The notes beneath the pieces were generated by a model. It saw only the letters and a list, made by a program, of their open reading frames with translations. It did no database searches and was not told the origin of the DNA. DNA of 4,554 nt, from positions 1 to 4,554 of IMG/VR virus record IMGVR_UViG_2778261688_000001, one strand, 5' to 3'. The position numbers and the translations under genes are program-made. The DNA is from a virus (taxonomy: Duplodnaviria; Heunggongvirae; Uroviricota; Caudoviricetes). Below are positions 1 through 4,554 of this stretch, piece after piece. Numbering within the stretch: the stretch's first letter is position 1; each line of letters starts with the position of its first letter.

Positions 1-892
1 GCAGCGTTAACGGTGATGGTGTGTCCATGTGAACCAATCGCAACGGAGTGCGTATGAGCACCAATACCGACAGTATGTGCATGTGCGCCTGCGCTTGCAG
101 CAGTGCCGGACAGCGAGTGGGTATGAGCACCATCTGATGATGTCTTCCCTGCATTACGAGTCTGGCCACTACCGCTTGTTGTGCTCATAATCCCCGCGCT
201 TAGATTTGAAATCGCGGTATAACCATTAGGGAAAATGCTCGTGTTCGTGCCACCAAATGCACCGGAACTCTTGTGTTGGTGCGCACCGGCACTATTTGCG
301 GTCCCGCTAATACTATGGGTATGCGCCCCGGTGTTATTCGTGGATTTGGTTCCGTAATCAAACGACGATGTGGTTTTCGTCCCCAAATCCGTACTGGATG
401 CGCTGGCGCTGTGGGTGTGCGATTTAATGCCGTCCTGTTCCTGAGATAATACGGCCCGACCACTGGCGGGCTTGCCCTTAATCGTCCAGCCACGCATATC
501 AGGGATCACGCCTGACGGATAAGCAACTGCAAGTTTCGGGTATGCAGATTTGTCAAAAGTCTGCCCCTGCATCAGGGCATAACCAGACGGAACGGTATCT
601 GATGGCCACGGGATTGGTGCACCGACTGGATAAAACTCTGCAGGAGGATGAGCCGAGGTGTAAAGCTGCGCCCACGGCGACCAGTTTGCGTCGGTCGTAT
701 CCCGTCGTGAACGAATAAATGCCGGAGCATGAGCACCGCTTGTACCACTCCAGCCGATGAGTAACTCACCTTCGCCAACGGCTGTCATCCCTTTCAGGTG
801 AATGATATTTCCATACGCTGTTGGATATCCGTTGTTATACACCTCGTATAACTCAAGACCTGCTGCCCCCTGCGTATTGTCTGTCAGCGCGG

Positions 893-894
<2 letters not shown>
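1..894 (-). CDS. stf: Side tail fibre protein (Stf-like) C-terminal region; 5'-truncated gene remnant lacking its native N-terminus and start, 3' end beyond the window start
   Basis: Hand translation of the minus-strand frame with codons at 899-897, 896-894 ... 5-3 shows no stop from 905 to 1: ...[149 protein letters not shown]...GAHTHSISG...GAHQHK...GAHTHSLSG...[29 protein letters not shown]. The PWPSD...[29 protein letters not shown] block and GAHxH repeats are characteristic of lambda Stf / T4 gp37-type distal fibre domains. Not listed in the ORF track because it runs off the window edge. Confidence 0.75.
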
Positions 895-3287
<2,393 letters not shown>

Positions 3288-3353
3288 GCTGGAGGGGTCA
3301 TCCGGCGTCCATTTGAGGCCAAACGGCGTCTCTTTGTCGCCAAATTTAAGATA

Positions 3354-3356
3354 CTA
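3354..3356 (-). other. In-frame amber (TAG) codon within the terminase large subunit gene
   Basis: Forward cta at 3354-3356 is TAG on the minus strand in the gpA frame. By my recollection of lambda gpA (…CPHCGEE-Q-YLKFGDK…) the wild-type codon is Gln, probably CAG, so a single C-to-T transition would create it. Confidence 0.85.
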
Positions 3357-4094
3357 CTCCTCCCCGCAGTGCGGGCAGGCAACATGAAAACGCATAAAAT
3401 GCAGGGATTCACTGGCTGCACGCTCAATCTGGCAGGTGCCTCTCACTTTGGGCGTGGAGCCACGGATGGACTTTGGCCAGACCGAGCCTTCAATACGTTT
3501 GTCGCCAAGGAACGTCGGAGAGCCTTCCTGTTCAATATCCTCATCAAAGGCAGCAAGTTCATCATAACCCGCCACATCCACCGACTTTTCACGGTAGTTT
3601 TTTGCCGCTTTACCGCCCAGGCACCAGAAGCCACGACCATTGGAAAAACGCTTCATAGTGAGCGTGTTATCCCGGTGCTTTTTGCCATACCACGGAGCCA
3701 GCGCCAGCAGCGACGGAATATCGCGGATGGTCGGCTCAACGTGGGTTTTCATAAAGTTCTCGGCATCACCATCCGTCGGCAACCAGATAAGGGTGTTGCG
3801 CTGCTTATGCTCTATAAAGTAGGCATAAACACCCAGCAGCATTTTGGAATAACCGACACGGGCAGACTTCACCACATTCACCTCACGGATGTAGTCGCTG
3901 CCCATCGCATTCATGATGGCCCGCTGAAAGGGCAGTGTTTCCCAGCGCCCTTCCTGGTATGCGGATTCTTTCGGGAGATAGTAATTAGCATCCGCCCATT
4001 CAACGGCGGTCTGTGGCTCCGGCCTGAACAGTGAGCGAAGCCCGGCGCGGACAAAATGCCGCAGCCTGTTAACCTGACTGTTCGATATATTCAC
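3354..4094 (-). CDS. A: gpA N-terminal fragment (246 aa) ending at the amber codon; the only product expected without an amber suppressor
   Basis: ATG at 4094-4092 and TAG at 3356-3354 on the minus strand. The sequence covers the Nu1-interacting N-terminus and the ATPase Walker A region of terminase large subunit. Confidence 0.8.
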   Translation of the reverse strand: MNISNSQVNRLRHFVRAGLRSLFRPEPQTAVEWADANYYLPKESAYQEGRWETLPFQRAIMNAMGSDYIREVNVVKSARVGYSKMLLGVYAYFIEHKQRNTLIWLPTDGDAENFMKTHVEPTIRDIPSLLALAPWYGKKHRDNTLTMKRFSNGRGFWCLGGKAAKNYREKSVDVAGYDELAAFDEDIEQEGSPTFLGDKRIEGSVWPKSIRGSTPKVRGTCQIERAASESLHFMRFHVACPHCGEE

Positions 4095-4554
4095 TCAGCA
4101 ACCCCGGTATCAGTTCATCCAGCGCGGCTGCTTTGTTCATGGCTTTGATGATATCCCGTTTCAGGAAATCAACATGTCGGTTTTCCAGTTCCGGAAAACG
4201 CCGCTGCACCGACAGGGGGATCCCGTCGAGAATACTGGCAATTTCACCTGCGATCCGCGACAGCACGAAAGTACAGAATGCGGTTTCCACCACTTCAGCG
4301 GAGTCTCTGGCATTTTTCAGCTCCTGTGCGTCGGCCTGCGCACGCGTAAGTCGATGGCGTTCGTACTCAATAGTCCCTGGCTGGAGATCTGTCTCGCTGG
4401 CCTGCCGCAGTTCTTCAACTTCCCGGCGCAGCTTTTCGTTCTCAATTTCAGCATCCCTTTCGGCATACCATCTTATAACGGCGGCAGAGTCATAAAGCAC
4501 CTCATTACCCTTGCCACCGCCTCGCAGAACGGGCATTCCCTGTTCCTGCCAGTT
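4069..4554 (-). CDS. nu1: Terminase small subunit Nu1 (DNA-packaging protein), 5'-partial; about the first 20 codons lie beyond the window end
   Basis: Minus-strand frame open from the window edge to a stop at 4069-4071. Codons 4554-4537 read NWQEQG, then MPVLRGGGKGNEVLYDSAAVIRWYAERDAEIENEKLRREVEELRQ...SEYIEQSG, which I recognise as lambda gpNu1 (181 aa in lambda). The 3' end overlaps the gpA start by 26 nt (4069-4094), as in lambda. Confidence 0.9.
   Translation of the reverse strand, partial: NWQEQGMPVLRGGGKGNEVLYDSAAVIRWYAERDAEIENEKLRREVEELRQASETDLQPGTIEYERHRLTRAQADAQELKNARDSAEVVETAFCTFVLSRIAGEIASILDGIPLSVQRRFPELENRHVDFLKRDIIKAMNKAAALDELIPGLLSEYIEQSG

Follow-up and report, generated by a model that had tools for sequence, protein, structure and literature searches.

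A Side Tail Fiber Remnant in a Qin-Type Prophage of Escherichia coli and the Recurrent Deletion Endpoint at Which It Begins

Introduction

The receptor-binding end of a tail fiber that stands directly behind a truncated portal gene, at a locus stripped of its tail genes, raises the question of how it came to be there and whether it still serves any function. The locus in question is a stretch of viral DNA of 4,554 nucleotides (nt), IMG/VR record IMGVR_UViG_2778261688_000001, referred to here as the window, which constitutes the whole of the 4554-bp draft contig NLGU01000056.1 in assembly GCA_002225785.1. All genes of the window lie on the minus strand in the order of the late operon of phage lambda, and the last of them is an open fragment of a side tail fiber gene (stf), designated stf′ and preceded by the truncated portal gene B′. 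An earlier note, made by a model from the letters alone, described this fragment as an orphaned receptor-binding region with seven HxH motifs (His boxes), retained without any tail. The present analysis compares the window with intact and deleted relatives; positions are those of the window unless preceded by L007, the intact prophage of E. coli O22:H8 strain 154, and other labels beginning with L denote further loci compared. Very likely, stf′ is a 3′ remnant of stf left by a 17,888-bp deletion, non-functional in itself but a possible donor of fiber sequence, and its 5′ boundary, termed the hub below, is a non-random hotspot for deletion endpoints.

Identity of the Fragment as a gp37-Type Fiber Tip

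By its sequence, the region of bases 1–905 is the 3′ third of a lambdoid stf gene in a Qin-type defective prophage of E. coli. Its full-length counterpart is a 1027-codon stf gene in strain 154, preceded by lom and J and followed by tfaQ and pinQ, and placement within that protein assigns the fragment, read from base 893 downward, to Stf residues 711–1007 of 1027. The frame, which had been described as open for about 300 codons, comprises 301 codons from base 905 to base 3; it is bounded upstream by a TGA at 908–906 and at its other end runs off the contig 61 nt before the natural stop. A stop or frameshift that would end the frame just beyond the window is absent from a contig with the same junction (L208), in which the frame runs on for 50 nt past base 1 with a sequence identical to intact stf, as far as 11 nt short of the natural stop.

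The suspected tail-fiber identity is borne out by alignment with the receptor-binding tip of T4 gp37 (PDB 2XGF; E = 9e-84, 231 aligned residues, fragment residues 88–318 to chain residues 28–242) and by Pfam, which finds a Phage Tail Collar domain and a tail-fiber repeat (Phage_fiber) in the fragment, the collar preceding the needle. All seven HxH motifs occupy precisely the positions given in the earlier note (Table 1), five of the seven being of the GAHxH form, one GSHGH and one KSHTH, and they pair in register with the seven of T4, the last 25 residues of the two proteins being nearly identical. The 301 residues include 17 histidines, and seven HxH motifs are far above chance expectation (mean 0.9, maximum 6, in 20,000 shuffles of the stf′ protein). 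Bartual and colleagues are said to have reported in 2010 that the HxH motifs of 2XGF coordinate seven iron ions along the T4 gp37 needle, and the reading of the His boxes of stf′ as metal-coordinating agrees with their alignment to those of T4, a role of iron in stf′ being predicted from that literature. The central segment of about 50 residues, corresponding to the head domain of T4, is divergent and contains indels, so that receptor specificity is expected to differ from that of T4.

The N-terminal tail-attachment domain PF08400 and the Ala-rich shaft repeats, both recognized by Pfam in the 1027-residue protein, are absent from the window frame. The claim that only the receptor-binding domain survives is correct as to the presence of that domain but not as to its limits, because about 87 further residues of an upstream domain, cut in mid-domain, are retained. 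T4-like phages and lambda orf-314 match the fragment only from residue ~88 onward, and in phages D6 and Goslar and in Vibrio phages the matching domain spans the N-terminus of the fragment, which indicates that the fragment starts within a domain and not at a module boundary.

Origin by a Single Deletion

On the intact prophage the two flanks of the B′–stf′ junction are collinear, with the stf side at L007 2112/2113 and the B side at L007 20001, and the window differs from L007 by a gap of 17,888 bp and only two single-nucleotide polymorphisms over 4.5 kb, one of which is the amber mutation Q247* in the terminase gene A. By this collinearity, a single 17,888-bp deletion fused codon 358 of the portal gene to stf midway through codon 710. 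What was lost comprises the remainder of B, the genes C, D, E, FI, FII, Z, U, V, G, T, H, M, L, K, I, J, and lom, and, at the N-terminal end of stf, 709 codons; the earlier remark that the fragment is kept without any tail thus holds for this locus, where 17.9 kb of head and tail genes are missing relative to the intact relative. The junction creates a minus-strand TAA at 895–893, which ends B′ in a frame other than that of Stf, and the earlier conclusion that there is no B–Stf fusion stands.

Bases 896–4554 share 99.7–99.9% identity with the nohA-A-W-B stretch that Qin-type prophages carry in thousands of E. coli genomes, and bases 1–896 show 100% DNA identity with the interior of a 3084-bp gene annotated as "phage tail protein" in many of those same genomes. 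Twelve contigs, drawn from at least six assemblies and including one of 27 kb, carry the junction-specific B′ of 358 residues. The 17.9-kb deletion is recent and represents one event in a Qin-type prophage. The amber mutation in A is a single G>A change at 3356 relative to the intact allele, and on sister contigs with the same B′–stf′ junction A is either intact (641 residues) or split by the amber codon; the deletion therefore preceded the amber mutation. The locus illustrates the disarming of a lambdoid prophage, first by an 18-kb deletion and then by the loss of terminase through an amber codon.

A Recurrent Endpoint Within stf

Approximately 200 loci, 152 of them with intact stf, were retrieved when IMG/VR, metagenomes, and genomes were scanned with anchors on the stf side. 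Among E. coli prophages, at least 19 different junctions end within window 893–896 (L007 2110–2113), and 16 of these lie exactly after ...GCGCGG(T/C)TA. The partner sequences are found in J, K/I, L, H, V, Z/FII, E (two sites), B (two sites), A (two sites), nohA (two sites), a Rac-type locus, and others; all that are traceable lie in the same prophage, collinear and in direct orientation at a distance of 3–21 kb, and the junctions are therefore simple deletions of 3–21 kb. The dinucleotide TA directly precedes the junction in 14 of the 15 traceable partner parents, against a TA dinucleotide frequency of 2.9%; the junction of the window is the exception, having a 2-nt overlap of AC instead. When junction types were counted with an anchor 150 nt away, which avoids bias toward the hub, the hub still accounted for about 10 of about 23 stf junction types. 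Within the set of complete genomes, the best match ends exactly at the hub in about 470 of 1277 matching genomes, many of which are K-12 laboratory strains. The opposite side of the hub is retained in L101, where the N-terminal part of stf is joined to tfa. These counts point to the stf-side endpoint as a non-random, nucleotide-precise hotspot of many independent deletions, on which the literature searched contained nothing.

Two smaller endpoint clusters occur within the same stf gene (Table 1), one after GGATA with four junctions (L204, L202, L201, L197) and one after GTATA with two (L205, L199). TA stands at the junction in all four of the traceable partners (L204, L197, L205, L199), the parents of L202 and L201 not having been found. 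Deletions elsewhere in these prophages show mixed microhomologies of 0–15 nt. As a separate observation, a hub-anchored deletion in which TA is followed by CCGGGC... is found in a Rac-type prophage near trkG, beside a partial ParB/Srx gene (L215, NZ_CP091026.1), so that the hotspot is not limited to the Qin locus.

The hub might be a site at which a DNA end or a polymerase stall recurs at ...GGTTA, the end then being rejoined through 0–8 nt of terminal microhomology, usually just TA. Such breakage or stalling fits better than a conservative crossover, because one junction lies 1 nt short of the hub with a 7-nt microhomology (L196), another lies 2 nt short with none (L214), a few hub junctions carry microhomologies of 7–8 nt, and the similarity of the partner flanks is weak; it is slightly favored for this reason. 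A tentative proposal, possible but not to be held with confidence, is that the hub is a sequence-specific site of breakage, stalling, or strand transfer that seeds one-sided deletions of 3–21 kb toward TA, stripping head and tail genes and sparing the fiber tip, tfa, and pin, and that it represents either a hotspot of lesions or roadblocks or an undescribed pair of enzyme and site. Should deletions be triggered by a defined site in stf, the domestication of E. coli prophages would be programmed in part by sequence instead of being random, and if the proposal is true, the widespread stfQ-type orphans, including that of K-12, would be products of one reconstitutable mechanism. Two points speak against breakage or stalling: no nuclease, lesion, or roadblock was identified at the hub, and the exact 2-nt TA in most junctions would equally fit a serine recombinase or a TA-targeting transposase.

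A rival explanation takes the 5′ boundary of the fragment as the conservative crossover of a site-specific recombinase, either PinQ/PinR or some other enzyme whose core is TA, in which case the fragment would be the "variable cassette" of a former fiber switch and the deletions would have arisen through pseudo-sites. The combination of a fixed endpoint with variable partners in direct orientation, the TA shared by 14 of the 15 traceable junctions with no filler DNA, the location of pinQ 1.6 kb away in Qin-type loci, and the retention of the opposite side of the site in L101 all agree with it, and invertases have been proposed to drive the exchange of stf modules (PMC3945230). However, the hub is unlike the e14 pix sites. 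In a consensus scan for a Pin/Gin-type crossover site it was mismatched with its center misplaced: against the Din-family 26-bp consensus TTCTCCCAAACC-NN-GGTTT..., window 877–902 scores 13/20 with the center 6 nt off, which equals other top chance matches in the window, whereas the true e14 pix sites score 18–19 and are recovered as 21-nt inverted repeats. A remnant of an invertible segment was likewise rejected, since no inverted or direct copy of the hub is present in intact loci, in the approximately 200 related loci, or near pinQ. The dyad symmetry of the hub is weak (5/12 positions). Furthermore, PinQ is only 38% identical to e14 PinE, the hub deletion occurs in L028 and L060 without an adjacent pinQ, two junctions miss the TA by 1 and 2 nt while that of the window overlaps in AC, the partner flanks resemble the hub weakly (p = 0.05 on the left, 0.01 on the right), and the hub is not a module boundary. 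On this evidence the recombinase explanation is unlikely. PinQ (L006 2623–3213) is itself a serine recombinase whose match strength in the PDB falls between Gin (E = 1.6e-29) and gamma-delta resolvase (E about 1e-22), and no cognate PinQ site is visible in the Qin locus.

Further causes of the hub were sought and rejected. The DNA folds into a hairpin or cruciform no better than shuffled sequences do (z = +0.6 to −0.3), and Chi sites are absent from the window and from the late region of the intact prophage. A BstEII-type GGTNACC site was rejected because the hub serves equally in its GGCTA allele. The 7-mer GCGGTTA was rejected as sole determinant, as it has six copies in the late region, yet deletions form a cluster at the hub alone; of the remaining copies, one, at 15842, takes part in two junction types. 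IS-mediated deletion was rejected because no insertion sequence (IS) abuts the hub in any locus, and a protein module boundary was rejected because homology to T4 and lambda begins 88 residues downstream and other phages span the hub. An IS3 element does lie within stf about 56 nt 3′ of the hub in one complete genome (L216 1809–2971, NZ_AP045795.1), where it splits the gene without a deletion. Finally, window 871–882, TGCGTATTGTCT, is identical to the 12 nt upstream of nic in the origin of transfer (oriT) of IncW (R388-type) plasmids, an oriT verified in 12 plasmids; the nic position is taken by us to be just after the 12-nt match. A second, loose match, GCCAGATTAA, is found 27 nt further in intact stf. 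The 12-nt match lies 13 nt from the hub, and the resemblance to oriT is probably coincidental.

Expression and Possible Function of the Fragment

The stf′ fragment is probably silent. At this junction it has no start codon, no Shine–Dalgarno sequence, and no promoter of its own, no minus-strand sigma-70-like promoter having been found in the window, and the tail genes of the operon are gone. The two in-frame candidate starts named in the earlier note, GTG at 842–840 and ATG at 788–786, are both present and, as suspected there, neither has a verifiable ribosome-binding site, since no Shine–Dalgarno match was found. Predicted duplexes with the anti-Shine–Dalgarno sequence give −3.2 kcal/mol at GTG 842 and +0.4 kcal/mol at ATG 788, compared with a background mean of −2.9 and a range of −4.1 to −6.6 at the true starts of genes B, W, and A. 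Moreover, the N-terminal context of stf′ differs in every derivative: K-12 has a GTG created in nohA-derived DNA and strain LZYWN_4 an in-frame fusion of portal and Stf, whereas the window has neither. The fragment would thus be a non-functional remnant, reached at most by read-through of the late operon and poorly translated from GTG 842 or ATG 788, and its product, without the PF08400 tail-attachment domain, could not be mounted on a virion.

In combination with tfa, which lies downstream, stf′ may still donate DNA to incoming lambdoid phages. Lambda recombines with the stf/tfa region of Qin at a frequency of about 2e-6 (PMC3945230), which suggests that such remnants serve as donors of host-range genes, and the surviving module of fiber tip and chaperone is sequence-perfect and hence usable for changing the host range of incoming phages.

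Several observations count against regarding stf′ as non-functional. Its frame is open to the natural C-terminus in 29 of 33 complete deletion derivatives; the ratio of nonsynonymous to synonymous substitution rates (dN/dS) is 0.36 over 196 codons when an old copy of the K-12 type is compared with the intact allele, although this divergence may predate the deletion, and both values would agree with a degree of selection on the protein; the stop of B′ lies 51 nt upstream of GTG 842, so that termination–reinitiation would be possible; and the contig stops 61 nt, and its sister contigs 11 nt, before the stf stop, which places tfa outside the view here. Orphan Stf fragments of the e14 prophage have, in addition, been reported to block adsorption of T2 (PMC12529663). 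A second rival explanation accordingly holds that a domesticated, truncated Stf is expressed by reinitiation or from GTG 842 or ATG 788, is folded by Tfa, and masks the receptor as an anti-phage defense in the manner of e14 StfE2. Besides the open frames, the dN/dS ratio, and this precedent, tfaQ stands beside stf′ in every derivative with a visible left flank, gene callers and PGAP predict a coding sequence (CDS) here, and a start codon in K-12 and an in-frame fusion in LZYWN_4 are available. Nevertheless, the window allele has neither promoter nor Shine–Dalgarno sequence, the N-terminal context varies between all alleles and the N-terminus halves a domain, and the only anciently diverged copy is truncated. 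Among derivatives, frames stay open at the same rate as in intact phage genes, which makes the open stf′ frames uninformative on selection, and the literature searched held nothing on a function or defense phenotype of stfQ. We therefore hold an expressed, defensive Stf′ to be improbable and retain the view of stf′ as a remnant.

Two derivatives mentioned above merit description. The fusion of LZYWN_4 (L214 1716–3050, NZ_CP046416.1), annotated in RefSeq as a 444-residue "phage portal protein," joins the portal N-terminus in frame to the Stf tip, 2 nt to the left of the hub. In strain ECGI0523 (L194, CP178306.1), a copy of the Qin region of about 90% identity has a nohA′–stf′ junction of the K-12 type, placed at the same nucleotide; this divergence indicates that the junction is old, and the stf′ open reading frame of L194 is truncated to 203 codons.

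That the B′–stf′ junction is an assembly artefact, a chimeric short-read contig formed at a repeat boundary, can practically be dismissed: although the window is a whole 4554-bp contig ending in the repeated 3′ end of stf and its exact junction is found in none of the complete E. coli genomes of the collection, the identical junction and B′ recur on the 12 contigs of independent assemblies, that of 27 kb included, and analogous hub junctions exist in finished genomes, including that of K-12 MG1655. A scan of genome contigs for the junction of the window did not find it either, a 22-nt match in Altererythrobacter (L193) having the appearance of chance.

Comparison with Known Systems

The closest known counterpart is stfQ of K-12 (b1547, 320 residues, "putative prophage side tail fiber protein StfQ"), located in the cryptic prophage Qin, to which the fragment shows 99% amino acid identity over 300 residues. 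Both belong to the same prophage family, lie among the Qin late genes (nohA and its neighbors), and share the stf-side endpoint of the deletion to the nucleotide. In K-12 and the other Qin-type loci with a visible left flank the fragment is followed by tfaQ, pinQ, ydfK, and ydfJ′, a flank that lies beyond the present contig. In K-12 the deletion extends between stf codon 710 and the 3′ end of nohA, whereby a GTG was gained two codons before the junction, whereas the loss in the window is smaller and stops in B, so that nohA, A (with the amber codon), W, and B′ are kept and no start is present at the junction. On these comparisons, the fragment is a new deletion allele of the known remnant stfQ. 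The fragment itself is routine and of low novelty, as an orphan of the stfQ type is already annotated in K-12.

With the T4 gp37 tip the fragment shares the collar, needle, and head architecture as judged by sequence, and iron binding and trimerization are predicted here by analogy; unlike gp37, it is without all upstream parts needed for attachment to fiber and virion. In lambda, whose Stf is encoded as orf-401/orf-314, orf-314 is 69% identical to the fragment over the same C-terminal 230 residues, and, just as lambda Stf is paired with Tfa, stf is followed by a tfa chaperone gene in every related locus with a visible left flank. Lambda PaPa differs in that its full-length gene is interrupted by a frameshift, whereas 709 codons have been physically deleted here. 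The P segment of e14, with StfE/StfP and Pin, likewise contains orphan C-terminal fiber fragments and tfa beside a serine recombinase in a cryptic prophage; by contrast with its two inverted pix crossover sites, neither such sites nor an inverted cassette are present at the stf′ locus.

Deletions with one fixed endpoint are known from other systems, namely Int-promoted deletions of lambda that start from att and deletions at the origin nick sites of M13 or pC194. They resemble those at the hub in that one of the two ends always falls at the same nucleotide, the other at varied sites that match it in a few bases, and either side can be retained. They differ in that no integrase att site, rolling-circle origin, or nickase is detectable at the hub.

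Gene Content of the Window

The coordinates of all features are collected in Table 1. The portal gene, of which the intact CDS measures 1602 nt, is followed upstream by an intact head–tail joining gene, the terminase large subunit gene, and a small terminase subunit gene that is incomplete at the contig end.

Table 1. Positions of genes, domains, motifs, and junctions in the window.
Feature	Position	Strand	Basis or remark
Open stf′ frame, 301 codons	3..905	−	Translation
T4 gp37 receptor-binding tip homology (collar, iron-binding needle, head)	3..635	−	PDB 2XGF; function predicted by homology
Phage Tail Collar domain PF07484	480..623	−	Pfam, E = 9e-12; residues 95–142 of the 301-residue frame
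HxH motif 1 (KSHTHS)	411..419	−	Translation; aligned with AHSHS of T4 gp37
HxH motif 2 (GAHTHS)	315..323	−	Translation and 2XGF alignment
HxH motif 3 (GAHQHK)	273..281	−	Translation and 2XGF alignment
HxH motif 4 (GAHTHS)	117..125	−	Translation and 2XGF alignment
HxH motif 5 (GAHAHT)	75..83	−	Translation and 2XGF alignment
HxH motif 6 (GAHTHS)	48..56	−	Translation and 2XGF alignment
HxH motif 7 (GSHGHT)	21..29	−	Translation and 2XGF alignment
In-frame ATG	786..788	−	AAAGGG directly abuts, so the spacing is unusable as Shine–Dalgarno
In-frame GTG	840..842	−	Start chosen by the gene caller in public assemblies (297-residue gene, 51 nt after the B′ stop)
Smaller endpoint clusters	827, 850 (L007 2044, 2067)		Same stf gene
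Deletion junction B′/stf′	893..896	.	2-nt overlap AC at 895–896; hub endpoint GCGCGGTTA followed by C
Truncated portal gene B′	893..1969	−	Codons 1–358 of 533 plus junction TAA; PF05136, E = 3e-76
Head–tail joining gene W, intact	1966..2172	−	PF02831
Terminase large subunit gene A	2169..4094	−	Inactivated by amber Q247*, TAG at 3356–3354
nohA/Nu1 small terminase subunit gene	4069..4554	−	PF07471; first 20 codons lost to the contig end

The sister contigs end within 50 nt of the same point at the 3′ end of stf, which suggests that a near-identical stf/tfa repeat is present elsewhere in those genomes.

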